DNA of 64,000 nucleotides, from the NCBI RefSeq assembly GCF_046105845.1, contig NZ_CP151004.1. One strand, given 5' to 3'. Below the pieces are notes generated by a model that saw only the letters and a list, made by a program, of their open reading frames with translations, was not told where the DNA came from and did no database searches. The translations under genes were made by a program, and so were the position numbers. This stretch comes from Escherichia coli. GTDB lineage: Bacteria; Pseudomonadota; Gammaproteobacteria; Enterobacterales; Enterobacteriaceae. Positions 6,298 to 46,122 of this stretch are shown here, in pieces (the stretch's first letter is position 1; each line of letters begins with the position of its first letter).

Positions 6298-6984
6298 ATG
6301 AAACGTATTAGCCTTGCCGTGCTGGCACTTTTAATGACCGCACAACAGTGTTTTGCTGGTGGCGTAGCCTTAAGTACGACGCGTGTTATTTATGATGGCG
6401 GCAAGAAAGAAGCGTCGCTGACCGTTGAAAATCATAATAAAAATGAAGAGTTTTTGATCCAGTCATGGATTGATGACGTGAATGGTAATAAAAAAACGCC
6501 GTTCATTATTACACCGCCATTATTCAAACTTGATCCCGATAAAAATAACGTCTTACGTATCGTCAATATTGAAGATACCTTACCTAAAGATCGTGAATCC
6601 GTTTACTGGATTAATGTAAAAGCGATTCCTGCGAAAAGTGCTGAAAATGAAAATAAAAACGTCTTACAGATAGCCGTTCGCACCCGTCTGAAGTTGTTCT
6701 ATCGTCCAAAAGGTTTGCCGGGAAGCAACCTCGAGGCAATGAAACAGTTACGTTTCCAGCGTCAAAATAACCAAATTGTGGTTAACAACGACTCCGCTTA
6801 TAACCTGACCTTTAATCAGTTTTCCGTTAATGGACAAAAGATTGAACGGGCGGGAATGGTTCTCGCAAAAGGGACGTTAAACATTAACCTTCCAGCCGGT
6901 ACAGGCAACGCGAACGAAGTGAAATACAGCATTATTAATGATTTCGGTGTTGCCGGCGAAATGCTGATGAAGCCGATCAACTGA
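6298..6984 (+). CDS. lpfB: Periplasmic fimbrial chaperone (PapD-like), 228 aa
   Basis: Signal peptide plus PapD-family-like sequence (…RVIYDGGKKEASLTVEN…, …VRTRLKLFYRP…); sits between major subunit and usher. Confidence 0.88.
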   Translation: MKRISLAVLALLMTAQQCFAGGVALSTTRVIYDGGKKEASLTVENHNKNEEFLIQSWIDDVNGNKKTPFIITPPLFKLDPDKNNVLRIVNIEDTLPKDRESVYWINVKAIPAKSAENENKNVLQIAVRTRLKLFYRPKGLPGSNLEAMKQLRFQRQNNQIVVNNDSAYNLTFNQFSVNGQKIERAGMVLAKGTLNINLPAGTGNANEVKYSIINDFGVAGEMLMKPIN

Positions 6985-7007
6985 CCCTTTTACAAGGCGC
7001 TTTTACT

Positions 7008-9539: not shown

Positions 9540-9543
9540 GGAT

Positions 9544-10599
9544 ATGCAGATGAAGAAGATATTTGCGAGTGCAATATTTTTTAGCGTAATTTTATTTTCA
9601 GAGGCACTTTACGCTGCAGATTGGGGACCATGTAAGATTGCTTTTGATGGTCCTCCATTCGATTATAGTTTCGATATCAGTCAGAGTATCCAGGAACCAA
9701 CTGAAAATAAGACTGGTAAAATATTAACGTCAACATGGAATTTGGGAACAAAGTACTCAGCATATTGTGAATGCCCTTCGAAGAATCCTGATGCCGGCAA
9801 ACCTACACTCTTTAAAGCTGATGTGAATTTGCAATCCGGGCATGCAACTGATTATTTCAAGGTTAATGATTTTTTAGACGTTACCACTAAGGTTTATGTG
9901 GTGTCATATGGTAATTGGCAAACTCCTTTTACGGATTTAAGTAACCGAACAACAGGTAAGGAGTGTGATCCGGATCATCCGGGAACAGGTTGGGCTACAG
10001 GAAGTAGAGGGGAGTTAAAACTATATATAGTTAAACCTTTTGTAGGACAACTTGATATACCTAAAACAGAAGTTGTGGCAATTTTTGGTACAAAGCAAGC
10101 GGGGGTTTATTATTCGACACCTTTATCAACAGTAAATATATTCGGTAATATAACTGTAACCCAAGGATGTGAACTTGCTGCGGGGACAACGCTTGAGATC
10201 CCCTTTGGCGAATATCAGGCTCATGACTTCAAAGGGCGTGCCGGACAACCGCCCCAGGGGGTACGAAAAATACAAAAAGAGTTAAGTTTTGACTGCAACA
10301 ATATTTCCGATGGAGTCAAAATCTATCTTAGCATTGAAGGTACTCCGAATACGGACTACCCCAGTGCAATCAGTTTGGGTAATTCAGATGTCGGCGCAGT
10401 TATTGAAGATGGGAAAGGCAATATCTTGAAGCCTAACGATAGCAATAGCTTATTGGAAATGGCTCCTGGTTCTCTGTATGACACGGTTAAGCGTACCGCG
10501 AAAACGACAATTACCGCCTACCCAGTCAGTACGAACGGGAAACTCCCCGCTGCAGGTGATTATAGCGGCATTGCTACCATACATGTCGAACTGGAGTAA
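9544..10599 (+). CDS. lpfD: Fimbrial minor subunit / putative tip adhesin, ~350 aa
   Basis: ORF following the usher with signal peptide MKKIFASAIFFSVILFSEALYA; start ambiguous (ATG 9544 or 9550; ORF track gives 9520, overlapping lpfC); visibly AT-rich. Confidence 0.8.
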   Translation: MQMKKIFASAIFFSVILFSEALYAADWGPCKIAFDGPPFDYSFDISQSIQEPTENKTGKILTSTWNLGTKYSAYCECPSKNPDAGKPTLFKADVNLQSGHATDYFKVNDFLDVTTKVYVVSYGNWQTPFTDLSNRTTGKECDPDHPGTGWATGSRGELKLYIVKPFVGQLDIPKTEVVAIFGTKQAGVYYSTPLSTVNIFGNITVTQGCELAAGTTLEIPFGEYQAHDFKGRAGQPPQGVRKIQKELSFDCNNISDGVKIYLSIEGTPNTDYPSAISLGNSDVGAVIEDGKGNILKPNDSNSLLEMAPGSLYDTVKRTAKTTITAYPVSTNGKLPAAGDYSGIATIHVELE

Positions 10600-10604
10600 C
10601 AGTC

Positions 10605-11126
10605 ATGAAGCGAACAATACTTGCGTTATGCCTGCTGCCTCTTTCCTTATCGACAATGGCGCTTACGGATTTGGGAGCGAAGGGTGATTTAAAATTCACT
10701 TTGCAGATCCGCCAGGGTGCCTGTGAACTGGTAAAAGACAATATTGAGGTAGACCTGGGAAGAGCGGTACTTAAACAGCCTGTAAGAATCGGAACAGAAC
10801 TTAATCCCACTACTTTTTCCATCGGTCTGAAAAACTGTAGCGAAGTTGTCAGGGCTTACGTCACCATGAATGGTACGCCCAATACGGACGATCCAAATCT
10901 TTTTGCGCTGGATGCGGGTGGCGCTACGGGCGTTGGGCTGAAAATCAAAACCGCTGCGGGAGTACAACAGTTCCCGGAAAATACGACACCGACGCCGATT
11001 GAGTTCGCGATTAACAGTGATGGCTCACATCAATTGAACTATATCGCCAGCTACGTGCCAATTCGCGCTGATGCAACCATTGGTCGCGCGGATGCAACGG
11101 TCGATTTTACCGTTCAGTACGAATAA
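10605..11126 (+). CDS. lpfE: Fimbrial minor subunit, 173 aa
   Basis: Signal peptide, fimbrial Cys pair, C-terminal …TVDFTVQYE motif; last gene of operon. Confidence 0.85.
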   Translation: MKRTILALCLLPLSLSTMALTDLGAKGDLKFTLQIRQGACELVKDNIEVDLGRAVLKQPVRIGTELNPTTFSIGLKNCSEVVRAYVTMNGTPNTDDPNLFALDAGGATGVGLKIKTAAGVQQFPENTTPTPIEFAINSDGSHQLNYIASYVPIRADATIGRADATVDFTVQYE

Positions 11127-11137
11127 TTTCGCTTCAC

Positions 11138-11161
11138 AGGGCTAGTTAACTAGCCCTTTTT
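11138..11161 (+). terminator. Rho-independent terminator downstream of lpfE
   Basis: Perfect palindrome AGGGCTAGTTAACTAGCCCT followed by TTTT. Confidence 0.7.
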
Positions 11162-21134: not shown

Positions 21135-21492
21135 AAAGTCCTGTCCAGAAAGAAGTCGGCCTCGCAAAAATGAATAAACCCAGTTTCTCTTGCGCAACAG
21201 GTGGAGAAGTCGAATACGCAGTATGTAAAAAATGAGGCAACAGATTCACTGGGGAGGTCGCGAGGAGGCGCAATTCTACAAAATTGCGCATTTCACTACC
21301 AGTCTGGAGTCAGCCCGGATATGAACTGCAACTATTGCAAATAAAGAAATTAAGCTGGAAGGCATCACGCAATGAGGAAGATAGCCGGGTGCTGACAGTA
21401 AAAAGCAATCGTAAAATCAGCGGCAAGCCGGAAGGGTTCCGGTGAGGCGCAATGTTGCGGGGGCTTTATCCCTGGTGGCATTGGTTGCTGGA

Positions 21493-21559
21493 GAGAGAAA
21501 ACCCCCGCACGTTGCAGGTATGCACCTGACAACACCACGGGGGCTAATCTTGACTCTAG
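21493..21559 (-). ncRNA. rdlD: Rdl antisense sRNA, copy 1 (ends approximate)
   Basis: On the minus strand a CCCCCG…CGGGGG hairpin followed by UUUUCUCUC (intrinsic terminator) lies antisense to the ldr leader; boundaries inferred from the recalled ~66-nt Rdl length. Confidence 0.55.
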
Positions 21560-21609
21560 ACCACTCAAGAATAGCCGCGAAACGTTGTCATTACAACACA
21601 GGCGGCTAT

Positions 21610-21717
21610 ATGACGCTCGCAGAGCTGGGCATGGCCTTCTGGCATGATTTAGCGGCTCCGGTCATTGCTGGCATTCTTGCCAGCATGATCGTGAACTGGC
21701 TGAATAAGCGGAAGTAA
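21610..21717 (+). CDS. ldrD: Type I toxin Ldr, 35 aa (MTLAELGMAFWHDLAAPVIAGILASMIVNWLNKRK)
   Basis: 35-codon ORF encoding a hydrophobic peptide recognised as Ldr family; chromosomal position between yhjV and bcsG matches K-12 ldrD. Confidence 0.85.
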   Translation: MTLAELGMAFWHDLAAPVIAGILASMIVNWLNKRK

Positions 21718-21975
21718 CGTGTCAGACGGGCGTCAGGCTGCCGTAATGGCAATTTGCGTCCGGACCAGGCCGCAGGGATAAAACTCTGTGGCCTTTTTCG
21801 TAAGAAAAATGCAACGGTTGCAAGCGGATAATATTCTGCGGAATGCGCAGCACAGAGTGAAGAAGTGATGGATTCCGGAACAGAAAAACAGTCGTAGAAT
21901 CAGCGGCAAGCCGGAAGGGTTCCGGTGAGGCGCAATGTTGCGGGGGCTTAATCCCTGGTGGCATTGGTTGCTGGA

Positions 21976-22042
21976 GAGAGAAAACCCCCGCACGTTGCAG
22001 GTATGCACCTGACAACATCACGGGGGCTAATCTTGAACCCAA
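21976..22042 (-). ncRNA. Rdl antisense sRNA, copy 2 (ends approximate)
   Basis: Same hairpin plus U-tract as copy 1, 483 bp downstream. Confidence 0.5.
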
Positions 22043-22092
22043 ACAACTCAAGAATAGCCGCGAAACGTTGTCATTACAACTCAGGCGGCTAT

Positions 22093-22200
22093 ATGACGCT
22101 CGCAGAGCTGGGCATGGCCTTCTGGCATGATTTAGCGGCTCCGGTCATTGCTGGCATTCTTGCCAGTCTGATCGTGAACTGGCTGAATAAGCGGAAGTAA
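22093..22200 (+). CDS. Type I toxin Ldr, second tandem copy, 35 aa (MTLAELGMAFWHDLAAPVIAGILASLIVNWLNKRK)
   Basis: Paralogous 35-codon ORF; differs from copy 1 by one residue (M26L). Confidence 0.8.
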   Translation: MTLAELGMAFWHDLAAPVIAGILASLIVNWLNKRK

Positions 22201-22286
22201 CGTGTCATGCGGGCGTCAGGCTGCCGTAATGGCAATTTGCGCCCGGACCAGGCCGCAGGGGTGAAACTCTGCGGCCTTTTTCGTGC

Positions 22287-23966
22287 TTACTGCGGGTAAG
22301 GCACCCAGTCGCCGCCGTTCAGGCGAACGTACGGTTTATCCTGGTATTGAATAACTACTGCATTTGAGTTCTCTGAGACCGGTGCTGTTTGTGGCAACCC
22401 ACTGGTGAGTTTTTTCCAGTCAACATTGTCTTCGGTGAAAATCTTGCCATCAAGAACGCGAACCACCAGATCGGAGATAGCCAGGAAGCTGCTCGGTTGG
22501 TCGATGACAATCGGTGCCCCCTGATGTGGTGCCTTCATGCCGAAGAATTTCACCCCAACGGGGACGTCTGTGATAGACGGGCTAGGGATATCACGTAGGC
22601 CAGATACCTGCATTCTGTCGCCCTTCAGCGCGCCGCCGTGTTCCGGCACCACGACCACCATCACTTTACGACCCGATTTCTCCAGTTCAGTAAAGAAGGC
22701 GTCCAGTTCATCAAAGAATTTCTGCGCCCGTGCTTTGTAATCCGCTGTTTTGCTGACGCCCGGATAATGGTTGCCGTCATGCAGTGGAAGCGTGTTGTAG
22801 AACGTGGCACTACGGCTGTTTTTATCTTTTTCGGTAACGTCCAGCCAGCGGTTAAGCACGGCGGTATCGTCATAAACCGGCGAACCATCAAAGCCCAGCA
22901 AAATAACCGGCAGATTTGTTTGATCCATCAATTCGGTCTGCATGCCGCCATTTTCGCGAACTTCTTTCAAAAAACCGCCGAACTGGCCGTTATGTCCCAT
23001 CATCAGGTGCTGGGTAAAGCCCAGTTTCGACAGGTTATCAAACAGATAGCAGTCGTTATTTGCCGGTTGATACAGATTAGTGTGCGAAGTCTGCCCGCAG
23101 CTGGCGCGCAGTAAACGGATCGCTGCCGGGCCACTGTAGGAGGTGGCGGAGTTAAAGTTCTTGAACTCAATATCGAAATGCGACCACAGCGGATGCGACA
23201 TTAACCCGGCGGCTTCAATATCCGACCAGGAAAGCGAACAGATATTAATCACCAGTAGTTCAAATGGCTGAGCATCAGCGGGCAGCGAAGACGGGAAGGT
23301 CGATTTACGTTTCGCCTCCGCGTTATAGAAATTATTCAGCCAGGCGTTAAGGTTCGCCGTTGTTGGCGGTGCAGTTTGTGCGGGCATATCACCCACTACC
23401 GGTGCGCCACCCGTCGCCGCAACGGTTGCCGCTGCGTTACCACCCGTCGTTGTTACAGTGGTCGTCGGTTGACCGGCTGGCCACAAGGAGAAACTTGGTC
23501 CCGCCAGGGTAAGTACGTTCAGCCATAGCAGAATGGCAACCACAAAAACGGTAATGCGAATCCATTGTGACAGGAATAACCAGGCCACTAATAAAACAAA
23601 AATGGCCCCAATCATCTGCCAGTTAATAAAGCGTGTGACAAGGTCGATTAAATAATCGGTACTGAACCCCGCCACCTGCGAACCCTGGCTCATTATGCTT
23701 TCCGGGCCAGGCAACCAGGTGTCATGCCATAACAAAGCAAAGCCGATCGGCAGGGCAATCCAGTGGCGTAAGCGATGCAGGCTGTAGCGCGGAATGGGCA
23801 TCAGCAGAAACGCGGCAAACACCAGATTGAGGAGCGGATGGAAGTTAAGATATCCCGCCCACAACAGGCCGAACTTAACCAGAAAATAGAAGTTCCAGCC
23901 GGAAAGGCCGCGCCAGTATTGCCAGAGGGAAGAAGGCATGGCGGTATTTTGCGTAAATTGAGTCAT
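22287..23966 (-). CDS. bcsG: Cellulose biosynthesis protein BcsG (pEtN-cellulose transferase), 559 aa
   Basis: 559-aa ORF recognised as BcsG (YhjU); N-terminal TM region and alkaline-phosphatase-like C-terminal domain. Confidence 0.93.
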
Positions 23967-24154
23967 TTTTTGGTTGCCCTGGCTTTTTCCGTGCGGCGTA
24001 ACGTCCCGGCCGGTTTAACATAACGAGGTTTAGCAAAGAACAAACGTAAGGTGTCGCGAATGCGTCGCAAAGAGTGCCGCGCCAGATAGCCCAGCGGGAA
24101 AAATATCAGTGCGCAAACGACAATAATTTCAATGATATCGCTGATGGTCATCAT
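23963..24154 (-). CDS. bcsF: Cellulose biosynthesis protein BcsF, 63 aa
   Basis: 63-aa single-TM ORF ([27 protein letters not shown]…); overlaps bcsG start and bcsE stop by 4 nt each. Confidence 0.9.
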
Positions 24155-25722
24155 GATGAGCGCTCCACAGCATCATCTAACAGTCGCATTGGTTCTGGTA
24201 TTCGTCGCCAGTGGCGACCATCGTGCTCGGCATTAATGACCGGTTTAGAATTTTGCGTTAAAGGCAGCGGCATGCCCCATTGTTCTGGGGCAAGCAGGCG
24301 CATCTGCACCAGCTCGGCACTGATTTGATCATCTTCAAACCAGACCATACGGTTTGAGAAAATTTCGCCAGTCGGCAATGGGAAAATATGATTCAACGCG
24401 GTATCCAGATCGTTAATCCGACAGAATGAGAGAAACAGCACCAGCCGATTACCGCCAATAGTCATGATATCGCCGGTGCGGTTAGGGCGACACAGCGTCA
24501 GGGCTTGTTCAACGCGGATACCCGGTACCGGACGTAGGGCAACCAGAACGCCTTTACCGTGGGCAGGTAATAGAGGGTTATTCATCATGCTGTTGACGGC
24601 ATTACAGAACACATCCCACTTCTGGAAACCACGCAGTTTGAGCGGCTGGGTCATTGACAGCAAGGTAGTGATATCTTCCGGCACATAGCGACTAAACTTC
24701 TGCCCTTGCACGCTTTCGATCATCGTCAGACAGCGTGAGAGTGGCGCATTCCATGGGATAACCATATTTGCACCGCAGGCCAATAACAAACGTTCATCGG
24801 TGGCGCGTAGGCTAGCGGTATTTTCCCGTACGAGGATTTTCATCGCACTACCGCGCTGGCGACGCAGGGTATGAATGCTGCGGGCCAGTGGCTCGATTTG
24901 TGCATTTTGCTGTAAAGAAAAGACCACCGTCGCCGCCTGAGCGGTACGGGCTTCATTGAACAGGACTTCGTTATTGTTGAACAGTTGCCAGTGTTCCGAT
25001 AGCGGCGGCGCACCTTCCAGTACAGCAACATTACTCAGAATGCGTTTTTCGTCGCTGCGTGGTTGGATCTCCGCTTCTTCGCTTTGAACTAATGTCCAGA
25101 TACCCTTTTGTTGCTGAACGCTAAGCTGCTGACGGGCGCTGACCCCTTTTTCGTTGCACCAGAAGGCAATATCCAGCAAATGTTGGTCGCCCTGGAAACG
25201 CAAACTGGCAAGACCAAAAAGTGAACGGTATTCCTCAAGCAACAATGAAAATTGTTTATCGTTATTATTTCCGGGATTAATTACCAAAAGCGAACAATGG
25301 TTTAACCTGCTCCATTTATTCATTTTATCCAACCACGAGTGAAGCCGCTCGGCAGGAATGTTTTGCCATGCGTTATTTGCGCAAACAAGAATAAAAAGGT
25401 AATTATGGGGATCAATAGAACACTGCAAATCACGGGCCAAATAGTATAGACCTTTTTCATGATTTAGCATTGAAAATAATTTTATTTTTTCCGGCCCTTG
25501 AGAATCATCTAATTGAAAGATTTTCGCCGGATCGCTGTCCATGCTAATGACCGCGACGTGTGCGGTTTCAGCCTGGGATGCAATTGTTTGATTCGCCAGA
25601 CTGATAGCATCTTCATGGCGATCGACGTTAAACCACCAGACGCCGCCTGCTGGCATATGTCGCAGCTCATCCCATAATGATGAGATACCGATAGAGAATA
25701 CAGGGTCCACAATGTCCCTCAT
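24151..25722 (-). CDS. bcsE: Cellulose biosynthesis protein BcsE (c-di-GMP binding), 523 aa
   Basis: 523-aa ORF recognised as BcsE (YhjS); first gene of the bcsEFG operon, divergent from bcsR. Confidence 0.93.
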
Positions 25723-25993
25723 GTCATCATTTTGTCTGATTATCAGTTTACTAGCGAAAGCTAAGAAATAAACCTACCATTGAAATTAAAACTTATCAGA
25801 TTTAGCATGTGAATCAATTTAGCAGGTCACAAGACGTGTGATTTTAGTCTTTTCGTTTTTAACTTTTTTTGTTGCGTAACGGAAAGTCAAAAAGTGAGCA
25901 AATTCCCGTCTCGCCGTAAACAATAAACCGGCGAAATGCTAACGGTTAGAATTGTCTCATGAACGGTACGGTTATTTCATAGGGATCAAGCAA

Positions 25994-26182
25994 ATGAATA
26001 ACAATGAACCAGATACTCTGCCTGATCCCGCGATAGGCTATATCTTCCAGAATGATATTTTGGCGTTAAAGCAGGCATTTTCACTGCCTGATATTGATTA
26101 TGCCGATATTTCCCAACGCGAACAGTTGGCCGCGGCATTAAAACGCTGGCCGTTGCTGGCAGAGTTTGCGCAACAAAAGTAG
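25994..26182 (+). CDS. bcsR: Cellulose biosynthesis protein BcsR, 62 aa
   Basis: ORF-track frame 25952..26182 trimmed to ATG at 25994 (MNNNEPDTLPDPAIGYIFQ…). Confidence 0.88.
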   Translation: MNNNEPDTLPDPAIGYIFQNDILALKQAFSLPDIDYADISQREQLAAALKRWPLLAEFAQQK

Positions 26183-26193
26183 GGGATTGGTGA

Positions 26194-26946
26194 ATGGCCG
26201 TACTGGGATTGCAGGGGGTGCGGGGAGGCGTGGGGACAACAACCATCACCGCCGCATTAGCCTGGTCATTACAAATGTTGGGAGAAAATGTCCTGGTGGT
26301 CGATGCCTGCCCGGACAACTTGTTGCGCCTGTCATTTAACGTTGATTTTACCCACCGTCAGGGCTGGGCCAGAGCTATGCTGGATGACCAGGACTGGCGT
26401 GACGCCGGGTTGCGCTATACCTCGCAGCTCGATTTGCTGCCTTTTGGTCAGTTATCCATTGAAGAACAAGAAAATCCACAGCACTGGCAAACCCGGCTGA
26501 GCGATATTTGCTCCGGCTTACAGCAACTCAAAGCCAGCGGGCGTTACCATTGGATTTTAATCGACTTACCGCGTGATTCCTCGCAGATAACCCACCAGCT
26601 GCTGAGTTTGTGCGATCACTCGCTGGCAATCGTCAATGTGGATGCCAACTGCCATATCCGACTGCATCAGCAAGCGCTACCGGATGGCGCACATATTTTG
26701 ATTAATGACTTCCGTATCGGCAGTCAAGTTCAGGACGATATTTACCAGCTTTGGTTGCAAAGCCAGCGCCGATTACTGCCGATGCTCATTCATCGTGATG
26801 AAGCGATGGCTGAATGCCTGGCGGCTAAGCAACCAGTCGGTGAATACCGCAGTGATGCGCTGGCGGCTGAAGAGATACTGACGCTGGCTAACTGGTGCCT
26901 GTTGAACTATTCCGGGCTGAAAACGCCAGTCGGGAGTGCATCATGA
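26194..26946 (+). CDS. bcsQ: Cellulose biosynthesis protein BcsQ (ParA/MinD-like ATPase), 250 aa, intact
   Basis: Uninterrupted 250-codon ORF, MAVLGLQGVRGGVGTTT…; codon 6 is TTG (Leu) at 26209-26211. Confidence 0.92.
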   Translation: MAVLGLQGVRGGVGTTTITAALAWSLQMLGENVLVVDACPDNLLRLSFNVDFTHRQGWARAMLDDQDWRDAGLRYTSQLDLLPFGQLSIEEQENPQHWQTRLSDICSGLQQLKASGRYHWILIDLPRDSSQITHQLLSLCDHSLAIVNVDANCHIRLHQQALPDGAHILINDFRIGSQVQDDIYQLWLQSQRRLLPMLIHRDEAMAECLAAKQPVGEYRSDALAAEEILTLANWCLLNYSGLKTPVGSAS

Positions 26947-29561
26947 GTATCCTGACCCGGTGGTTGCTTATCCCGCCGGTCAACGCGCGGCTTATCGGGC
27001 GTTATCGCGATTATCGTCGTCACGGCGCGTCGGCTTTCAGCGCGACGCTCGGCTGTTTTTGGTTGATTCTGGCCTGGATTTTTATTCCGCTGGAGCACCC
27101 GCGCTGGCAGCGTATTCGCGCAGAACATAAAAACCTGTATCCGCATATCAACGCCTCCCGTCCGCGTCCGCTGGACCCGGTCCGTTATCTCATTCAAACA
27201 TGCTGGTTACTGATCGGTACATCGCGCAAAGAAACGCCGAAACCGCGCAGGCGGACATTTTCAGGTCTGCAGAATATTCGTGGACGTTACCATCAATGGA
27301 TGAACGAGCTGCCTGAGCGCGTTAGCCATAAAACACAGCATCTCGATGAGAAAAAAGAGCTCGGTCATTTGAGCGCCGGGGCGCGGCGGTTGATCCTCGG
27401 TATCATCGTCACCTTCTCGCTGATTCTGGCGTTAATCTGCGTTACCCAGCCGTTTAACCCGCTGGCGCAGTTTATCTTCCTGATGCTGCTGTGGGGTGTA
27501 GCGCTGATCGTACGGCGGATGCCGGGGCGCTTCTCGGCGCTAATGTTGATTGTGCTGTCGCTGACCGTTTCTTGCCGTTATATCTGGTGGCGCTACACCT
27601 CTACGCTGAACTGGGACGATCCGGTCAGCCTGGTGTGCGGGCTTATTCTGCTGTTCGCCGAAACGTACGCGTGGATTGTGCTGGTGCTCGGCTACTTCCA
27701 GGTAGTATGGCCGCTGAATCGTCAGCCGGTGCCATTGCCGAAAGATATGTCGTTGTGGCCGTCGGTGGATATCTTTGTCCCGACTTACAACGAAGATCTC
27801 AACGTGGTGAAAAATACCATTTACGCCTCGCTGGGTATCGACTGGCCGAAAGACAAGCTGAACATCTGGATCCTTGATGACGGCGGCAGGGAAGAGTTTC
27901 GCCAGTTTGCGCAAAACGTGGGGGTGAAATATATCGCCCGTACCACTCATGAACATGCGAAAGCGGGCAACATCAACAATGCGCTGAAATATGCCAAAGG
28001 CGAGTTCGTGTCGATTTTCGACTGCGACCACGTACCAACGCGATCGTTCCTGCAAATGACCATGGGCTGGTTCCTGAAAGAAAAACAGCTGGCGATGATG
28101 CAGACGCCGCACCACTTCTTCTCACCGGATCCGTTTGAACGCAACCTGGGGCGTTTTCGTAAAACACCGAACGAAGGCACGCTGTTCTATGGTCTGGTGC
28201 AGGATGGCAACGATATGTGGGACGCCACTTTCTTCTGCGGTTCCTGTGCGGTGATTCGCCGTAAGCCGCTGGATGAAATTGGCGGCATTGCTGTCGAAAC
28301 TGTGACTGAAGATGCGCATACTTCTCTGCGCCTGCACCGTCGTGGCTACACCTCTGCATATATGCGTATTCCGCAGGCGGCGGGGCTGGCGACCGAAAGT
28401 CTGTCGGCGCATATCGGTCAGCGTATTCGCTGGGCGCGCGGGATGGTGCAAATCTTCCGTCTCGATAACCCGCTCACCGGTAAAGGGCTGAAGTTTGCTC
28501 AGCGGCTATGTTACGTCAACGCCATGTTCCACTTCTTGTCGGGCATTCCACGGCTGATCTTCCTGACTGCGCCGCTGGCGTTCCTGCTGCTTCATGCCTA
28601 CATCATCTATGCGCCAGCGTTGATGATTGCCCTGTTCGTGCTGCCGCATATGATCCATGCCAGCCTGACCAACTCGAAGATCCAGGGCAAATATCGCCAC
28701 TCTTTCTGGAGTGAAATCTACGAAACGGTGCTGGCGTGGTATATCGCACCACCGACGCTGGTGGCGCTGATTAACCCGCACAAAGGCAAATTTAACGTTA
28801 CCGCCAAAGGTGGACTGGTGGAAGAAGAGTACGTCGACTGGGTGATCTCGCGGCCCTACATCTTCCTTGTTCTGCTCAACCTGGTGGGCGTTGCGGTAGG
28901 CATCTGGCGCTACTTCTATGGCCCGCCAACCGAGATGCTCACCGTGGTCGTCAGTATGGTGTGGGTATTCTACAACCTGATTGTTCTTGGCGGCGCAGTT
29001 GCGGTATCGGTAGAAAGCAAACAGGTACGCCGATCGCACCGCGTGGAGATGACGATGCCCGCGGCAATTGCCCGCGAAGATGGTCACCTCTTCTCGTGTA
29101 CCGTTCAGGATTTCTCCGACGGTGGTTTGGGGATCAAGATCAACGGTCAGGCGCAGATTCTGGAAGGGCAGAAAGTGAATCTGTTGCTTAAACGTGGTCA
29201 GCAGGAATACGTCTTCCCGACCCAGGTGGCGCGCGTGATGGGTAATGAAGTTGGGCTGAAATTAATGCCGCTCACCACCCAGCAACATATCGATTTTGTG
29301 CAGTGTACGTTTGCCCGTGCGGATACATGGGCGCTCTGGCAGGACAGCTATCCGGAAGATAAGCCGCTGGAAAGTCTGCTGGATATTCTGAAGCTCGGCT
29401 TCCGTGGCTACCGCCATCTGGCGGAGTTTGCGCCTTCTTCGGTGAAGGGCATATTCCGTGTGCTGACTTCTCTGGTTTCCTGGGTTGTATCGTTTATTCC
29501 GCGCCGCCCGGAGCGGAGCGAAACGGCACAACCATCGGATCAGGCTTTGGCTCAACAATGA
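26943..29561 (+). CDS. bcsA: Cellulose synthase catalytic subunit, 872 aa
   Basis: ORF-track frame 26895..29561 trimmed to ATG at 26943 (MSILTRWLLIPPVNARLIG…); GT2 motifs and C-terminal PilZ region recognised; start overlaps bcsQ stop. Confidence 0.95.
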   Translation: MSILTRWLLIPPVNARLIGRYRDYRRHGASAFSATLGCFWLILAWIFIPLEHPRWQRIRAEHKNLYPHINASRPRPLDPVRYLIQTCWLLIGTSRKETPKPRRRTFSGLQNIRGRYHQWMNELPERVSHKTQHLDEKKELGHLSAGARRLILGIIVTFSLILALICVTQPFNPLAQFIFLMLLWGVALIVRRMPGRFSALMLIVLSLTVSCRYIWWRYTSTLNWDDPVSLVCGLILLFAETYAWIVLVLGYFQVVWPLNRQPVPLPKDMSLWPSVDIFVPTYNEDLNVVKNTIYASLGIDWPKDKLNIWILDDGGREEFRQFAQNVGVKYIARTTHEHAKAGNINNALKYAKGEFVSIFDCDHVPTRSFLQMTMGWFLKEKQLAMMQTPHHFFSPDPFERNLGRFRKTPNEGTLFYGLVQDGNDMWDATFFCGSCAVIRRKPLDEIGGIAVETVTEDAHTSLRLHRRGYTSAYMRIPQAAGLATESLSAHIGQRIRWARGMVQIFRLDNPLTGKGLKFAQRLCYVNAMFHFLSGIPRLIFLTAPLAFLLLHAYIIYAPALMIALFVLPHMIHASLTNSKIQGKYRHSFWSEIYETVLAWYIAPPTLVALINPHKGKFNVTAKGGLVEEEYVDWVISRPYIFLVLLNLVGVAVGIWRYFYGPPTEMLTVVVSMVWVFYNLIVLGGAVAVSVESKQVRRSHRVEMTMPAAIAREDGHLFSCTVQDFSDGGLGIKINGQAQILEGQKVNLLLKRGQQEYVFPTQVARVMGNEVGLKLMPLTTQQHIDFVQCTFARADTWALWQDSYPEDKPLESLLDILKLGFRGYRHLAEFAPSSVKGIFRVLTSLVSWVVSFIPRRPERSETAQPSDQALAQQ

Positions 29562-29571
29562 TGATAACGCG

Positions 29572-31911
29572 ATGAAAAGAAAACTATTCTGGATTTGTGC
29601 AGTGGCTATGGGGATGAGTGCGTTCCCCTCTTTCATGACGCAGGCGACGCCAGCAACGCAACCACTGATCAATGCTGAGCCAGCTGTAGCCGCCCAGACG
29701 GAACAAAATCCGCAGGTGGGGCAAGTGATGCCGGGCGTGCAGGGCGCTGATGCGCCAGTCGTGGCGCAGAACGGTCCTTCGCGTGATGTGAAGCTGACCT
29801 TTGCGCAAATTGCGCCGCCGCCGGGCAGCATGGTGCTACGTGGCATTAACCCGAACGGCAGCATTGAGTTTGGTATGCGCAGCGATGAAGTGGTGACGAA
29901 GGCGATGCTCAACCTCGAATACACGCCATCGCCGTCTTTGCTACCTGTCCAGTCGCAGTTAAAGGTTTATCTCAATGATGAACTGATGGGCGTGCTGCCA
30001 GTGACCAAAGAACAGTTGGGTAAAAAAACGCTGGCGCAAATGCCCATTAACCCACTGTTTATTACCGACTTCAACCGTGTGCGGCTGGAGTTTGTCGGTC
30101 ATTATCAGGACGTGTGCGAAAACCCGGCCAGCACCACGCTTTGGCTGGATGTTGGGCGGAGCAGTGGACTGGATTTGACCTATCAGACCCTGAATGTGAA
30201 GAATGACCTGTCACACTTCCCGGTACCATTCTTTGACCCGCGTGATAACCGTACTAACACCTTGCCGATGGTCTTTGCGGGTGCGCCGGATGTCGGGCTG
30301 CAACAAGCATCTGCCATTGTCGCCTCGTGGTTTGGTTCGCGTTCTGGCTGGCGTGGGCAGAACTTCCCGGTGCTCTATAACCAATTGCCGGATCGCAATG
30401 CCATCGTTTTTGCCACCAATGACAAACTCCCGGATTTCCTGCGCGATCATCCGGCGGTAAAAGCCCCGGTGATTGAGATGATCAACCATCCGCAGAATCC
30501 TTACGTCAAACTGCTGGTGGTGTTTGGTCGTGACGACAAAGACCTGTTGCAGGCAGCGAAAGGTATCGCTCAGGGTAACATTCTGTTCCGTGGTGAAAGC
30601 GTGGTAGTGAATGAAGTGAAACCGCTGCTACCGCGTAAGCCCTACGATGCGCCGAACTGGGTGCGTACCGATCGTCCGGTCACCTTTGGTGAACTGAAAA
30701 CCTATGAAGAACAGTTGCAATCCAGCGGTCTTGAGCCAGCAGCGATTAATGTTTCGCTAAACCTGCCGCCAGATCTCTACCTGATGCGCAGTACCGGCAT
30801 TGATATGGATATTAATTACCGCTACACCATGCCGCCGGTGAAAGACAGTTCGCGGATGGATATCAGCCTGAATAACCAGTTCCTGCAATCATTCAATCTG
30901 AGCAGCAAACAGGAGGCGAACCGCCTGCTGCTGCGTATTCCGGTATTACAAGGTTTGCTGGATGGCAAAACGGATGTCTCTATTCCGGCGCTGAAACTGG
31001 GCGCGACCAACCAGCTGCGCTTCGACTTTGAGTATATGAACCCGATGCCGGGCGGTTCGGTGGATAACTGTATTACCTTCCAGCCGGTGCAGAATCATGT
31101 GGTGATTGGTGATGATTCCACCATCGACTTCTCGAAGTATTACCACTTCATCCCGATGCCGGATCTACGCGCCTTTGCTAACGCGGGCTTCCCGTTCAGC
31201 CGGATGGCGGATCTGTCGCAAACCATCACCGTGATGCCGAAAACGCCTAACGAAGCACAGATGGAAACCTTGCTGAATACTGTTGGTTTTATCGGCGCAC
31301 AGACGGGCTTCCCGGCGATTAATCTGACGGTGACCGATGATGGCAGCACCATTCAGGGCAAAGATGCCGACATCATGATCATCGGTGGTATCCCGGACAA
31401 ATTAAAAGACGACAAGCAGATCGACCTGCTGGTGCAGGCGACCGAAAGCTGGGTGAAAACGCCGATGCGCCAGACCCCGTTCCCCGGCATTGTTCCGGAC
31501 GAGAGCGATCGCGCGGCAGAAACCCAGTCAACGCTGACCTCTTCCGGTGCGATGGCGGCGGTGATTGGCTTCCAGTCGCCGTATAACGACCAGCGCAGCG
31601 TGATTGCGCTGCTGGCAGATAGCCCACGCGGTTATGAAATGCTTAACGATGCGGTGAACGATAGCGGCAAACGCGCCACCATGTTCGGTTCGGTCGCGGT
31701 GATCCGCGAGTCCGGTATCAATAGCCTACGCGTTGGCGACGTCTATTACGTTGGCCATCTGCCGTGGTTCGAACGCTTATGGTATGCGCTGGCAAACCAT
31801 CCGATTCTGCTGGCGGTGCTGGCGGCAATCAGCGTCGTGCTGCTGGCCTGGGTACTGTGGCGTCTGCTGCGTATTATCAGCCGTCGTCGTCTTAACCCGG
31901 ATAACGAGTAA
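29572..31911 (+). CDS. bcsB: Cellulose synthase periplasmic subunit, 779 aa
   Basis: ORF-track frame 29485..31911 trimmed to ATG at 29572 (MKRKLFWICAVAMGMSAFPSF…). Confidence 0.95.
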   Translation: MKRKLFWICAVAMGMSAFPSFMTQATPATQPLINAEPAVAAQTEQNPQVGQVMPGVQGADAPVVAQNGPSRDVKLTFAQIAPPPGSMVLRGINPNGSIEFGMRSDEVVTKAMLNLEYTPSPSLLPVQSQLKVYLNDELMGVLPVTKEQLGKKTLAQMPINPLFITDFNRVRLEFVGHYQDVCENPASTTLWLDVGRSSGLDLTYQTLNVKNDLSHFPVPFFDPRDNRTNTLPMVFAGAPDVGLQQASAIVASWFGSRSGWRGQNFPVLYNQLPDRNAIVFATNDKLPDFLRDHPAVKAPVIEMINHPQNPYVKLLVVFGRDDKDLLQAAKGIAQGNILFRGESVVVNEVKPLLPRKPYDAPNWVRTDRPVTFGELKTYEEQLQSSGLEPAAINVSLNLPPDLYLMRSTGIDMDINYRYTMPPVKDSSRMDISLNNQFLQSFNLSSKQEANRLLLRIPVLQGLLDGKTDVSIPALKLGATNQLRFDFEYMNPMPGGSVDNCITFQPVQNHVVIGDDSTIDFSKYYHFIPMPDLRAFANAGFPFSRMADLSQTITVMPKTPNEAQMETLLNTVGFIGAQTGFPAINLTVTDDGSTIQGKDADIMIIGGIPDKLKDDKQIDLLVQATESWVKTPMRQTPFPGIVPDESDRAAETQSTLTSSGAMAAVIGFQSPYNDQRSVIALLADSPRGYEMLNDAVNDSGKRATMFGSVAVIRESGINSLRVGDVYYVGHLPWFERLWYALANHPILLAVLAAISVVLLAWVLWRLLRIISRRRLNPDNE

Positions 31912-31917
31912 TTGAAG

Positions 31918-33024
31918 ATGAATGTGTTGCGTAGTGGACTCGTGACGATGCTGCTGCTGGCTGCCTTTAGTGTTCAGGCAGCCTGCAACTGGCCTGCCTG
32001 GGAGCAGTTCAAAAAGGATTACATCAGTCAGGAAGGGCGCGTCATTGACCCAAGTGACGCGCGTAAAATCACCACTTCCGAAGGGCAAAGTTACGGCATG
32101 TTCTTTGCCCTGGCGGCTAACGACCGTGCAGCTTTCGATAATATTCTCGACTGGACGCAGAACAATCTCGCTCAGGGTTCTTTAAAAGAACGTTTGCCCG
32201 CATGGCTGTGGGGCAAGAAAGAGAACAGTAAGTGGGAAGTGCTGGACAGCAATTCGGCCTCCGATGGTGATGTCTGGATGGCCTGGTCGTTGCTGGAGGC
32301 GGGGCGTTTGTGGAAAGAGCAGCGTTATACCGACATCGGCAGCGCGTTGTTAAAACGTATTGCGCGGGAGGAAGTGGTGACGGTGCCTGGGCTGGGTTCC
32401 ATGTTGTTGCCGGGCAAAGTGGGATTTGCAGAGGATAACAGCTGGCGTTTTAACCCCAGCTACCTGCCGCCGACGCTGGCGCAGTATTTCACCCGCTTTG
32501 GCGCGCCGTGGACTACGCTGCGCGAAACCAATCAACGTTTATTGCTGGAAACCGCCCCGAAAGGCTTTTCGCCAGACTGGGTGCGCTATGAGAAAGACAA
32601 AGGCTGGCAGCTAAAAGCCGAAAAAACATTGATCAGCAGCTACGACGCGATCCGCGTTTACATGTGGGTAGGCATGATGCCTGACAGCGATCCGCAAAAA
32701 GCGCGGATGCTCAACCGGTTTAAACCGATGGCGACATTCACCGAGAAAAACGGCTATCCGCCAGAAAAAGTGGATGTGGCTACGGGGAAAGCGCAGGGTA
32801 AAGGACCGGTCGGTTTTTCTGCCGCCATGCTGCCCTTTTTACAAAACCGCGATGCGCAGGCCGTTCAGCGCCAGCGCGTGGCCGATAACTTTCCCGGCAG
32901 CGATGCCTATTACAACTATGTGCTGACCCTGTTTGGACAAGGCTGGGATCAACACCGTTTCCGCTTCTCGACAAAAGGTGAGTTATTACCTGACTGGGGC
33001 CAGGAATGCGCAAATTCACACTAA
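31918..33024 (+). CDS. bcsZ: Endo-1,4-beta-glucanase (GH8), 368 aa
   Basis: ORF-track start at 31912 is TTG; ATG at 31918 gives [21 protein letters not shown]… signal peptide and the expected 368 aa. Confidence 0.93.
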
Positions 33025-36000
33025 ACATATTCACGCTTTCTCTCGGTCTGGCCGTCATGCCGATGGTCGAGGCAGCACCAACCGCTCAGCAACAGTTGCT
33101 GGAGCAAGTTCGGTTAGGCGAAGCGACCCATCGTGAAGACCTGGTGCAACAGTCGTTGTATCGTCTGGAACTTATTGATCCGAATAACCCGGACGTCGTT
33201 GCCGCCCGTTTCCGTTCTCTGTTACGTCAGGGCGATATTGATGGCGCGCAAAAACAGCTCGATCGGCTGTCGCAGTTAGCGCCGAGTTCAAATGCGTATA
33301 AATCGTCGCGGACCACAATGTTGCTTTCCACGCCGGATGGTCGTCAGGCACTGCAACAGGCAAGATTGCAGGCGACGACTGGTCATGCAGAAGAAGCTGT
33401 GGCGAGTTACAACAAACTGTTCAACGGTGCGCCGCCGGAAGGTGACATTGCCGTCGAGTACTGGAGTACGGTGGCGAAAATTCCGGCTCGCCGTGGCGAA
33501 GCGATTAATCAGCTAAAACGCATTAATGCGGATACGCCGGGCAATACGGGCCTGCAAAACAATCTGGCGCTATTGCTGTTTAGTAGCGATCGCCGTGACG
33601 AAGGCTTTGCCGTCCTGGAGCAGATGGCGAAATCGAACGCCGGGCGCGAAGGAGCCTCTAAAATCTGGTACGGGCAGATTAAAGATATGCCCGTCAGCGA
33701 TGCCAGTGTGTCGGCGCTGAAAAAATATCTCTCGATCTTTAGTGATGGCGATAGCGTAGCTGCGGCGCAATCGCAACTGGCAGAACAGCAAAAACAGCTG
33801 GCCGACCCTGCTTTCCGCGCTCGTGCGCAAGGTTTAGCGGCGGTGGACTCTGGTATGGCGGGTAAAGCCATTCCCGAACTACAACAGGCGGTGCGGGCGA
33901 ACCCGAAAGACAGTGAGGCACTGGGGGCGCTGGGCCAGGCGTATTCTCAGAAAGGCGATCGCGCCAATGCGGTGGCGAATCTGGAAAAAGCCCTCGCCCT
34001 GGATCCGCACAGCAGCAACAACGACAAATGGAACAGTCTCCTGAAAGTAAACCGCTACTGGCTGGCGATCCAGCAGGGCGATGCTGCGCTGAAAGCCAAT
34101 AATCCTGACCGGGCAGAACGCCTGTTCCAGCAGGCGCGCAATGTCGATAACACCGACAGCTATGCAGTGCTGGGGCTGGGTGATGTGGCGATGGCGCGCA
34201 AAGATTACCCTGCAGCCGGACGTTATTATCAGCAGACGCTACGGATGGACAGTAGCAACACTAACGCCGTGCGCGGTCTGGCGAATCTTTATCGCCAGCA
34301 ATCGCCGGAAAAAGCCGAAGCGTTTATCGCCTCGCTCTCTGCCAGCCAGCGGCGCAGCATTGATGATATCGAACGCAGCCTGCAAAATGACCGTTTGTCA
34401 CAGCAGGCAGAGGCACTGGAAAAACAGGGCAAATGGGCGCAGGCAGCAGCACTTCAGCGCCAGCGACTGGCGCTGGACCCCGGCAGTGTATGGATTACTT
34501 ACCGACTTTCACAGGATCTCTGGCAGGCCGGACAACGCAGCCAGGCCGATACGTTAATGCGTAATCTGGCGCAGCAGAAGCCGAACGACCCGGAGCAGGT
34601 TTACGCTTACGGGCTGTATCTCTCTGGCCATGACCAGGACAGAGCGGCGCTGGCGCATATCAACAGCCTGCCGCGCGCGCAGTGGAACAGCAATATTCAG
34701 GAGCTGGTTAATCGACTGCAAAGCGATCAGGTACTGGAAACCGCTAATCGCCTGCGAGAAAGCGGCAAAGAAGCTGAAGCGGAAGCGATGCTGCGCCAGC
34801 AACCACCTTCCACGCGCATAGACCTCACGCTGGCTGACTGGGCGCAACAACGACGTGATTACACCGCCGCCCGCACTGCATATCAGAATGTCCTGACGCG
34901 GGAGCCAGCTAACGCCGATGCCATTCTTGGTCTGACGGAAGTGGATATTGCTGCCGGTGACAAAGCGGCGGCACGTAGCCAGCTGGCGAAGCTGCCTGCC
35001 ACCAATAACGCCTCGCTGAACACTCAGCGGCGCGTGGCGCTGGCACAGGCGCAGCTTGGCGATACCGCAGCGGCGCAGCAGACGTTTAATAAGTTGATCC
35101 CGCAGGCAAAATCTCAGCCACCGTCGATGGAAAGCGCGATGGTGCTGCGCGACGGTGCGAAGTTTGAAGCGCAGGCGGGCGATCCAACGCAGGCGCTGGA
35201 AACCTACAAAGACGCCATGGTTGCATCCGGTGTGACCACGATGCGTCCACAGGATAACGACACCTTTACCCGACTGACCCGCAATGACGAGAAAGATGAC
35301 TGGCTGAAACGCGGCGTGCGCAGCGATGCGGCGGACCTCTATCGTCAGCAGGATCTTAACGTCACCCTCGAGCACGATTACTGGGGTTCGAGCGGCACCG
35401 GTGGTTACTCCGATCTGAAAGCGCACACCACCATGTTGCAGGTGGATGCGCCGTACTCTGACGGGCGGATGTTCTTTCGCAGTGATTTCGTCAATATGAA
35501 CGTCGGCAGTTTCTCCACTAATGCCGATGGCAAATGGGATGACAACTGGGGCACCTGTACATTACAGGACTGTAGCGGCAACCGCAGCCAGTCGGATTCC
35601 GGTGCCAGCGTGGCGGTCGGTTGGCGAAATGACGTCTGGAGCTGGGATATCGGCACCACGCCGATGGGCTTCAACGTGGTGGATGTGGTCGGCGGCATCA
35701 GTTACAGCGATGATATCGGGCCGCTGGGTTACACCGTTAACGCCCATCGTCGGCCCATCTCCAGTTCTTTGCTGGCCTTTGGTGGGCAAAAAGACTCTCC
35801 GAGCAATACCGGGAAAAAATGGGGCGGCGTGCGTGCCGACGGCGTGGGGCTAAGCCTGAGCTACGATAAAGGTGAAGCAAACGGCGTCTGGGCATCGCTT
35901 AGCGGTGACCAGTTAACCGGTAAAAATGTCGAAGATAACTGGCGCGTGCGCTGGATGACGGGCTATTACTATAAGATCATCAACCAGAATAATCGCCGTG

Positions 36001-36479
36001 TGACCATTGGTCTTAACAATATGATCTGGCATTACGACAAAGACCTGAGTGGCTACTCACTCGGTCAGGGCGGTTACTACAGCCCGCAGGAATACCTGTC
36101 GTTTGCCATACCGGTGATGTGGCGGGAGCGCACGGAAAACTGGTCGTGGGAGCTGGGGGCGTCTGGCTCGTGGTCGCATTCACGCACCAAAACCATGCCG
36201 CGTTATCCGCTGATGAATCTGATCCCGACCGACTGGCAGGAAGAAGCTGCGCGGCAATCGAACGATGGCGGCAGCAGTCAGGGCTTTGGCTACACGGCGC
36301 GGGCATTACTTGAACGACGTGTTACTTCCAACTGGTTTGTCGGCACGGCAATTGATATCCAGCAGGCGAAAGATTACGCACCCAGCCATTTCCTGCTCTA
36401 CGTACGTTATTCCGCCGCCGGATGGCAGGGTGACATGGATTTACCGCCGCAGCCGCTGATACCTTACGCCGACTGGTAA
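33006..36479 (+). CDS. bcsC: Cellulose synthase outer-membrane subunit (TPR repeats plus beta-barrel), 1157 aa
   Basis: 1157-aa ORF with signal peptide, recognised as BcsC; start overlaps bcsZ 3' end by 19 nt. Confidence 0.95.
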
Positions 36480-36560: not shown

Positions 36561-38549
36561 TTGCGCGTAAGTCGCTCGTTAACAATCAAGCAGATGGCAA
36601 TGGTGGCAGCCGTTGTCCTGGTGTTCGTTTTTATTTTTTGCACCGTTTTGCTGTTCCATCTGGTCCAGCAGAATCGCTATAACACGGCTACGCAACTGGA
36701 AAGCATTGCTCGCTCTGTCCGCGAACCCTTATCTTCAGCTATTTTGAAAGGCGATATTCCCGAAGCGGAAGCTATTCTTGCCAGCATTAAACCGGCAGGC
36801 GTGGTCAGCCGTGCCGATGTAGTGCTGCCTAACCAGTTCCAGGCGCTGCGTAAAAGTTTTATTCCAGAGCGTCCGGTGCCGGTAATGGTTACTCGCATGT
36901 TTGAGCTACCGGTTCAAATCTCGCTGGGTGTCTACTCGCTCGAACGTCCGGCAAATCCGCAGCCAATTGCCTATCTGGTGCTACAGGCGGATTCCTTCCG
37001 CATGTATAAGTTCGTGATGAGCACCCTCTCAACGTTAGTGACCATTTACTTACTTTTGTCGTTAATATTGACGGTGGCGATTAGCTGGTGCATTAACCGC
37101 CTGATTTTGCATCCGTTACGCAATATTGCTCGCGAACTTAACGCCATCCCTGCCCAGGAGCTTGTTGGTCACCAACTGGCATTACCACGTCTGCATCAGG
37201 ACGATGAAATCGGTATGCTGGTGCGCAGTTACAACCTCAACCAGCAATTGCTGCAGCGCCATTATGAAGAACAGAACGAAAACGCGATGCGCTTCCCGGT
37301 GTCGGATTTGCCGAACAAAGCCTTGCTGATGGAGATGCTGGAGCAGGTTGTCGCGCGTAAACAAACCACCGCGCTGATGATCATCACCTGTGAAACCCTG
37401 CGTGATACTGCGGGCGTGCTGAAAGAGGCGCAACGAGAAATTCTGCTGCTGACGCTGGTGGAAAAACTCAAATCGGTACTGTCGCCACGTATGATCCTCG
37501 CGCAGATTAGTGGTTATGACTTTGCTGTCATTGCCAACGGGGTACAGGAACCGTGGCACGCAATCACTTTGGGTCAGCAAGTGCTCACTATCATGAGCGA
37601 GCGCCTGCCGATTGAACGTATTCAACTCCGTCCGCACTGTAGCATTGGCGTGGAGATGTTCTACGGCGATCTCACCGCCGAACAGCTTTACAGTCGCGCT
37701 ATTTCTGCGGCATTTACCGCTCGCCATAAAGGCAAGAATCAGATTCAGTTCTTTGATCCGCAGCAGATGGAAGCCGCCCAACAGCGGTTGACGGAAGAGA
37801 GCGATATCCTTAATGCACTGGAAAATCATCAGTTTGCGATTTGGTTACAGCCACAGGTCGAGATGACCAGCGGTAAACTGGTCAGTGCAGAAGTGTTACT
37901 GCGTATCCAGCAACCGGATGGCAGTTGGGATCTGCCGGATGGCTTAATCGATCGCATTGAGTGCTGTGGGCTGATGGTTACCGTCGGTCACTGGGTGCTG
38001 GAAGAGTCCTGTCGATTGCTTGCTGCCTGGCAAGAGCGCGGCATTATGCTGCCCTTGTCGGTAAACCTCTCAGCGCTGCAACTGATGCATCCAAATATGG
38101 TGGCGGATATGCTGGAACTGTTAACCCGCTATCGCATTCAGCCGGGAACACTGATTCTGGAAGTGACAGAAAGCCGACGTATTGACGACCCTCATGCTGC
38201 GGTGGCAATCCTCCGTCCGTTGCGTAATGCCGGAGTTCGGGTGGCGCTGGATGATTTCGGCATGGGCTATGCGGGGCTGCGTCAGCTGCAGCATATGAAA
38301 TCGTTGCCAATCGACGTACTGAAAATCGACAAAATGTTTGTTGAAGGTTTGCCGGAAGATAGCAGCATGATTGCTGCAATTATCATGCTGGCGCAGAGCC
38401 TGAACTTACAAATGATTGCCGAAGGCGTGGAGACTGAAGCACAACGCGACTGGCTGGCAAAAGCGGGCGTTGGTATTGCCCAGGGCTTCCTTTTTGCTCG
38501 CCCACTCCCTATTGAAATCTTCGAAGAGAGTTACCTGGAAGAAAAGTAG
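36561..38549 (+). CDS. pdeK: c-di-GMP phosphodiesterase (HAMP-GGDEF-EAL), ~650-662 aa
   Basis: ORF with N-terminal TM helix and C-terminal EAL domain, recognised as PdeK (YhjK); longest frame starts at TTG 36561, alternative ATGs 33-39 nt downstream. Confidence 0.9.
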
Positions 38550-42990: not shown

Positions 42991-43758
42991 ATGATAAGGC
43001 AGGTTATCCAGCGAATAAGCAACCCTGAAGCAAGCATCGAGAGCTTGCAGGAACGGCGTTTTTGGTTGCAGTGTGAGCGTGCTTACACCTGGCAGCCGAT
43101 CTATCAAACATGCGGACGGTTAATGGCCGTGGAGCTATTAACGGTGGTCACACATCCCTTGACCCCTTCGCAACGCCTGCCGCCGGATCGCTATTTTACT
43201 GAAATCACCGTCAGCCATCGGATGGAGGTTGTGAAAGAGCAGATTGATTTGCTGGCGCAAAAAGCCGACTTCTTTATAGAGCACGGCCTGCTGGCATCGG
43301 TCAATATTGATGGCCCTACGCTCATCGCCCTGCGTCAGCAACCAAAAATCCTGCGCCAGATTGAGCGTCTTCCCTGGCTGCGTTTCGAACTGGTGGAGCA
43401 TATCCGTCTGCCGAAAGATTCAACCTTTGCCTCGATGTGTGAATTTGGCCCGCTGTGGCTGGATGATTTTGGTACCGGGATGGCAAATTTCTCTGCACTA
43501 AGTGAAGTGCGTTATGACTACATCAAAATCGCGCGAGAACTGTTTGTGATGCTGCGTCAGTCGCCGGAAGGCCGCACGCTCTTTTCTCAGCTTTTACATC
43601 TCATGAATCGCTATTGTCGCGGGGTGATTGTCGAGGGCGTAGAAACGCCGGAAGAGTGGCGTGATGTTCAGAACTCGCCCGCATTCGCCGCACAAGGCTG
43701 GTTTCTTTCACGCCCGGCACCGATAGAAACGCTGAATACGGCGGTTTTGGCGCTATAA
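42991..43758 (+). CDS. pdeH: c-di-GMP phosphodiesterase (EAL-only), 255 aa
   Basis: ORF-track frame 42946..43758 trimmed to ATG at 42991 (MIRQVIQRISNPEASIESLQ…); recognised as PdeH (YhjH). Confidence 0.93.
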   Translation: MIRQVIQRISNPEASIESLQERRFWLQCERAYTWQPIYQTCGRLMAVELLTVVTHPLTPSQRLPPDRYFTEITVSHRMEVVKEQIDLLAQKADFFIEHGLLASVNIDGPTLIALRQQPKILRQIERLPWLRFELVEHIRLPKDSTFASMCEFGPLWLDDFGTGMANFSALSEVRYDYIKIARELFVMLRQSPEGRTLFSQLLHLMNRYCRGVIVEGVETPEEWRDVQNSPAFAAQGWFLSRPAPIETLNTAVLAL

Positions 43759-45888: not shown

Positions 45889-45931
45889 TGAGGTTGGATT
45901 GTGTTTGTTGGTGAGTTCGGGAGCAGCGTGT

Positions 45932-45969
45932 TCCCCTCACCCTAACCCTCTCCCCAAAGGGGCGAGGGG
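45932..45969 (+). repeat. GC-rich palindromic intergenic repeat, copy A
   Basis: CCCCTCACCCTAACCCTCTCCCCAAAGGGGCGAGGGGA. Confidence 0.7.
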
Positions 45970-46067
45970 ACTGTTTTGTGCGTGTTGAAACAACGAGTAC
46001 CGCTTTTCCGTTCACTTTCTGGGGGGAGGGCTGTTATGTTCGCGATATAACATCTCGCTCCGCTTTT

Positions 46068-46106
46068 CTCCCTCTCCCTTTCAGGGAGAGGGCCGGGGTG
46101 AGGGTG
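46068..46106 (-). repeat. GC-rich palindromic intergenic repeat, copy B (inverted relative to A)
   Basis: TCCCTCTCCCTTTCAGGGAGAGGGCCGGGGTGAGGGTGG is the reverse complement of the copy A motif. Confidence 0.7.
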
Positions 46107-46122
46107 GCAGCCCGCACGATAC

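Follow-up and report, generated by a model that had tools for sequence, protein, structure and literature searches.

BcsQ in described cellulose loci

The 'de-domesticated' K-12 strain AR3110, reportedly described by Serra, Richter and Hengge in 2013, makes both cellulose and phosphoethanolamine cellulose (pEtN-cellulose) experimentally. K-12 derivatives carry the change 17T>A in bcsQ, by which codon 6 is turned from TTG to TAG, and repair of this change restores cellulose (PMC5944007). AR3110 is W3110 changed only at bcsQ codon 6, from TAG to TTG, and is cellulose-proficient (PMC7397504, PMC5014196). Since this one change was sufficient, the remaining eight bcs genes of K-12 must be present as working alleles.

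The BcsQ protein of E. coli (YhjQ; PDB 6YAR, 6YBU, 6YBB) has been crystallised; it is an NTPase of the SIMIBI/MinD fold whose Walker A motif is deviant and whose residue 39 is a cysteine (Abidi et al. 2021, PMC7840130). With ATP bound, it pairs with BcsR in BcsR2Q2 'tango' dimers; it also binds BcsE and contacts BcsA, cellulose secretion absolutely needs it, and mutation of N152, R156 and N171 led to progressively lower calcofluor binding (PMC7840130). Cellulose synthesis specifically requires DgcC, which supplies c-di-GMP under the control of CsgD and RpoS, and is opposed by PdeK, a local c-di-GMP sink (PMC7397504). Both the K-12 SNP and its repair have been published, as has the role of BcsQ, and the finding presented below is a known one.

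The locus described here lies in a stretch of 64,000 nucleotides from an E. coli chromosome, referred to as the window. It has the TTG at codon 6, the gene order and the lengths of all nine bcs genes in common with AR3110, and its bcsQ differs from that of AR3110 in being a natural allele of another lineage.

The bcsQ gene and its codon 6

In the window, bcsQ (26194..26946, plus strand) is an intact gene of 250 codons encoding the SIMIBI/MinD-like ATPase subunit essential for cellulose secretion. Its 5' end reads ATG GCC GTA CTG GGA TTG CAG GGG GTG, and the 250-aa frame starting from ATG is translated without an internal stop. The comparison with K-12 MG1655 was carried out over NC_000913.3 3680000-3705000, where the counterpart (3695233-3695985) is annotated as 'pseudogene bcsQ b3534'. 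Both genes are of equal length and align without gaps, with 737 of 753 nucleotides identical and 16 different. Nucleotide 17 is T in the window and A in K-12, so that codon 6 (26209..26211, plus strand) is TTG (Leu) in the window versus TAG (stop) in NC_000913.3; the K-12-type null allele, which owes its TAG to 17T>A, is therefore not the one carried here. Beyond codon 6, three amino acid changes were observed, with D65, H119 and S129 in the window corresponding to G, Q and A in K-12.

The first-pass annotation of this DNA, made from the sequence alone, had recorded an intact bcsQ with TTG at codon 6 and had stated that K-12 carries a TAG there. The open reading frame, its translation and the direct alignment with K-12 bear out the first point, and the K-12 stop codon was seen in NC_000913.3 as well as in the published descriptions (PMC5944007, PMC7397504, PMC5014196), which disposes of the chance, raised in that annotation, that K-12 might itself have TTG at this codon. 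The further statement that the TAG inactivates bcsQ in K-12 agrees with the pseudogene annotation and with the published repair by which cellulose was restored.

BcsQ of the window was assigned to its family by NCBIfam NF007460 and TIGR03371 and by Pfam PF06564 (CBP_BcsQ). The equivalog NF007460 was matched over residues 1-250 of 250 with 537.5 bits (cut-off 399), and TIGR03371 with 297.4 bits (cut-off 157.85). The crystallised BcsQ, also 250 aa long, aligns from end to end and differs by five substitutions, the window having D65 for G, H119 for Q, S129 for A, D172 for N and A249 for K. D172 is also present in K-12, whereas D65, H119 and S129 are the differences from K-12 given above, and none of the five substitutions falls at a residue mutagenised in PMC7840130. 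Because of the full-length NF007460 match and the match to the crystallised protein, bcsQ is not a chance open reading frame. The deviant P-loop QGVRGGVGTTT, a deviant Walker A motif without the MinD-type lysines, and C39, a cysteine at the position of the catalytic aspartate, were both found in the window protein, and the dimer and ATP-pocket residues N152, R156 and N171 are all kept; each of these features is shared with the crystallised BcsQ. The gene context is likewise as expected, with bcsR directly before and bcsA directly after bcsQ, and the gene of the crystallised protein also follows bcsR and overlaps the start of bcsA. From its near-identity to the crystallised protein, the window BcsQ would be predicted to form BcsR2Q2 in an ATP-dependent manner and to serve in secretion.

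The K-12 stop at codon 6 lies upstream of the P-loop, and it would therefore be expected to remove the whole of BcsQ; a restart at the in-frame GTG of codon 9 would lose the first eight residues, which precede the P-loop. As to bcsA, its ATG overlaps the bcsQ stop in the tetranucleotide ATGA (26943-26946), an arrangement which fits translational coupling. The overlap offers a plausible route by which an early stop in bcsQ could exert a polar effect on bcsA; a demonstration that the K-12 TAG is polar on bcsA was not found in the accessible literature.

The frequency of both alleles was determined in 5426 complete E. coli genomes with 41-nt queries centred on the SNP, for which every 28-nt megablast seed spans codon 6. 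The TTG allele was matched in 4891 of these genomes (~90%), in 3578 of them at 100% identity, while the TAG allele was matched in 349, all at 100% identity. A 61-mer around the site was matched in 5247 genomes, and the two alleles together account for 5240 of these. Among the TAG matches listed (120 of 349), all were consistent with K-12 laboratory derivatives: most were named MG1655, W3110-type, DH5alpha, DH1, J53, HB101, BW25113, C600, XL1-Blue, MC4100 or TG1, and the others were O16:H48 or had chromosomes of 4.46-4.79 Mb. Intact bcsQ is thus the norm in E. coli, and the TAG is a loss of the K-12 lineage that is absent from the window. Because it occurs in ~90% of genomes, an intact bcsQ is not a distinguishing feature of this strain.

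These counts also bear on whether the TTG could be an assembly or sequencing error in a genome whose true codon 6 is a stop. Nothing was found in favour of such an error. The TTG 41-mer is present without mismatch in the 3578 genomes mentioned above, the surrounding 3.9-kb tract is identical to that of the independent complete genome AST215, and the exact BcsQ protein occurs on at least 1000 contigs. The error was considered and rejected, having next to no chance of being correct, and the TTG is taken as the true codon.

Some of the TAG genomes are labelled with natural sources, namely Coffea arabica (ecMN1F), chicken (THN257), mouse gut (O16:H48 PG2018) and Homo sapiens. Their sizes of 4.6-4.7 Mb suggest that they are K-12 derivatives or transconjugant recipients and not wild isolates. 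In addition, the 61 nt around the bcsQ start went unmatched in ~180 of the 5426 complete genomes, as would be expected if these had lost the bcs region by deletion. A deletion of this kind was reported for strain HS.

A BcsQ nonsense mutation common to ST167, ST617 and ST744 has been described (PMC10881479). The presence of the K-12 TAG in natural isolates of the ST10 complex was considered and rejected, given that the listed TAG matches (120 of 349) were all consistent with K-12 derivatives. The ST167-type mutation probably sits at another codon, since the TAG 41-mer was matched in only 349 genomes and the listed ones are K-12-like.

Integrity of the remaining bcs genes

The window contains the complete E. 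coli-like (type II) Bcs set of nine subunits, composed of bcsRQABZC and the divergent bcsEFG. On the plus strand, bcsQ is preceded by bcsR (yhjR; 25994..26182), encoding the BcsQ-stabilising partner of 62 aa with one nucleotide and one amino acid difference from K-12 (NF040717 BcsR, 75.8 bits, cut-off 46). It is followed on the same strand by bcsA (26943..29561; 872 aa, catalytic cellulose synthase; 3 aa different from K-12; NF008558, 1792.8 bits), bcsB (29572..31911; 779 aa, periplasmic partner of the synthase; 8 aa different; NF008325, 1383.7 bits), bcsZ (31918..33024; 368 aa, periplasmic endoglucanase; 3 aa different; NF008305, 595.6 bits) and bcsC (33006..36479; 1157 aa, TPR and outer-membrane channel subunit; 12 aa different; full length with NF008520 at 2193.8 bits). 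The minus strand carries bcsE (24151..25722; 523 aa, c-di-GMP-binding regulator; 6 aa different; NF011619, 1184.7 bits), bcsF (23963..24154; 63 aa; nucleotide-identical to K-12; TIGR03493, 116.4 bits) and bcsG (22287..23966; 559 aa, cellulose phosphoethanolamine transferase; 4 aa different; TIGR03368, 818.7 bits). All nine Bcs proteins exceed the curated NCBIfam cut-offs, eight of the models being equivalogs and that of BcsR being of the 'exception' type.

The nine bcs genes and pdeK align with K-12 from the first to the last base with zero gaps, and internal stops and frameshifts, which were sought in these ten genes of the window by alignment with K-12, were not found. Nucleotide identity of the nine bcs genes to K-12 ranges from 96.5% to 100%, being lowest in bcsC and complete in bcsF, and the amino acid differences add up to 37 over the eight Bcs proteins other than BcsQ (0-12 each). 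The three differences in BcsA all fall in the N-terminal 105 residues, and the protein has kept its GT2 motifs (DCD at 360, FFCGS at 430, TED at 455 and QRIRW at 493) as well as the c-di-GMP-binding PilZ motif RxxxR (RRSHR at 696). BcsG is intact, with the differences L58I, F79L, S344T and E489D from K-12. The first-pass annotation had described bcsRQABZC and bcsEFG as full length and had allowed for a frameshift missed in bcsA or bcsB; the former holds for all nine genes, which are colinear with K-12 and free of internal stops, and both bcsA and bcsB are gap-free in the alignment.

The divergent intergenic control region between bcsE and bcsR (25723..25993, 271 nt) is identical to that of AST215 and has four point differences from K-12, with no insertion and no regulatory lesion seen in the comparison of these 271 nt. 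In a scan for promoter and terminator consensus sequences around bcsR-bcsQ, hits were no more numerous than those obtained with shuffled sequence.

All nine exact Bcs proteins are already present in public assemblies. The exact BcsR, BcsQ, BcsA, BcsZ and BcsF were each found on at least 1000 public contigs, while the alleles of BcsB, BcsC, BcsG and BcsE are rare (10, 6, 6 and 3 public contigs, respectively). Lineage-specific substitutions, shared with neither K-12 nor AST215, are BcsB R286L, BcsE R128H, N206K, N378S, D453E and S491N, and seven in BcsC. One of the rare missense alleles, i.e., the five changes in BcsE, the seven in BcsC, BcsB R286L or BcsG F79L, might weaken or abolish synthesis or the pEtN modification, and missense changes in BcsB, BcsC and BcsQ have indeed been proposed as the cause in negative strains (PMC5944007). 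The rarity of these alleles, on only 3-10 public contigs, and their divergence from K-12 and AST215 would fit such an effect. However, the changes are mostly conservative, the motifs that were checked (catalytic and PilZ motifs of BcsA, ATP pocket of BcsQ) are free of them, and the full-length scores are far above the equivalog cut-offs, which makes a disabling missense allele very unlikely.

Taken with codon 6, the window almost certainly holds an ordinary wild-type E. coli allele of bcsQ within a complete and undisrupted type II cellulose locus (bcsRQABZC and divergent bcsEFG). With a sense codon at position 6, the full 250-aa BcsQ could be made and ribosomes would run on to the ATGA overlap with bcsA, the downstream and divergent genes being intact. 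For near-identical proteins, published structural and genetic work has shown that the ATP-bound BcsR2Q2 complexes dock, together with BcsE, at the cytosolic side of BcsA. Judged from its gene content, the locus would be genetically competent for pEtN-cellulose when DgcC supplies c-di-GMP under CsgD/RpoS control.

The structural genes for pEtN-cellulose are uninterrupted, and the strain is thus not cellulose-negative for the reason that applies to K-12, which is useful to know when strains are picked for biofilm work. Of 76 common sequence types, 74 were found to have loss-of-function mutations in bcs genes, and in 14 of these >80% of strains were affected (PMC10881479). Because such losses are frequent in many E. 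coli lineages, a fully intact locus of nine genes is mildly informative, though not novel.

Cellulose phenotype and c-di-GMP control

An intact locus is no guarantee of a cellulose phenotype, because BL21 and H10407 are negative despite a full bcs set and because the genes for CsgD, DgcC and RpoS (csgD, dgcC, rpoS) lie outside the window. In BL21 and H10407, all bcs genes are without a premature stop, yet both strains are calcofluor-negative, and among phylogroup-A strains one of six was calcofluor-positive (PMC5944007).

No more than 17 kb from the cellulose locus are two c-di-GMP phosphodiesterase genes, which bear on its activity in vivo. These are pdeK (hmsP; 36561..38549, plus strand), encoding the cellulose-synthase-linked enzyme of 662 aa, which is intact and gap-free with 5 aa different from K-12, and pdeH (yhjH; 42991-43758, plus strand), which is intact and encodes 255 aa from ATG.

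The strain could therefore have intact reading frames and nevertheless be cellulose-negative under standard conditions, either through control from outside (csgD, dgcC/adrA, rpoS, dgcQ) or through a drain of c-di-GMP by PdeK and PdeH. The low share of calcofluor-positive phylogroup-A strains, the two negative strains without premature bcs stops (PMC5944007), the need for DgcC together with the opposing action of PdeK (PMC7397504), and the presence of intact pdeK and pdeH in the window all speak for this. On the other hand, the 271-nt bcsE-bcsR control region is without a visible lesion, and a negative phenotype, which is a real possibility but not the expected outcome, would limit only what can be said of the phenotype. 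The reading of the locus itself as undisrupted is not contradicted by it.

Comparison with AST215 and neighbouring regions

By its colinearity with AST215 (NZ_AP043621.1), the window spans the E. coli chromosome from bisC to gadE and is overall ~98.6-98.9% identical to that genome, in which the bcs locus has the same annotation and gene order. The 3.9-kb segment from 25341 to 29248, which takes in the end of bcsE, then the control region with bcsR and bcsQ, and the greater part of bcsA, is 100% identical in both, whereas the flanks of this segment differ by ~1-1.4%, with roughly 6-47 differences per kb. Given the identity of the tract to AST215 and the ~1% difference of its flanks, the pattern in the alignment suggests that 25341-29248 was acquired recently through homologous recombination spanning the core of the cellulose locus. 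That imports of this kind mend or replace disrupted bcsQ or bcsA alleles in nature, running counter to the repeated loss of cellulose genes, is a speculative extension which is quite unlikely to be correct.

A long polar fimbriae operon, lpfABCDE, is located at 5365-11138 between yhjX and eptB, and its five reading frames (5690-6214, 6298-6984, 7008-9539, 9520-10599 and 10605-11126, all on the plus strand) are intact. AST215, which is the closest complete genome for the bcs region, is without this operon between eptB and yhjX. Among the 5426 complete E. coli genomes, the best match to the operon has only 95.5% identity, and at least 80% of it is covered in only 696 of them; by these matches the lpf allele of the window looks unusually divergent.

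The intergenic region between yhjG and yhjE (45891-46123) does not align with AST215, being ~230 nt long in the window versus ~180 nt in AST215, and its flanks are ~98.6% identical. In addition, the stretch between yhjV and bcsG (~21395-22284) holds a tandem pair of Ldr-type type I toxin units, as opposed to the one ldrD/rdlD of K-12. AST215 likewise has two copies, and when it was compared with the window the units of the pair cross-matched at 95-96%.
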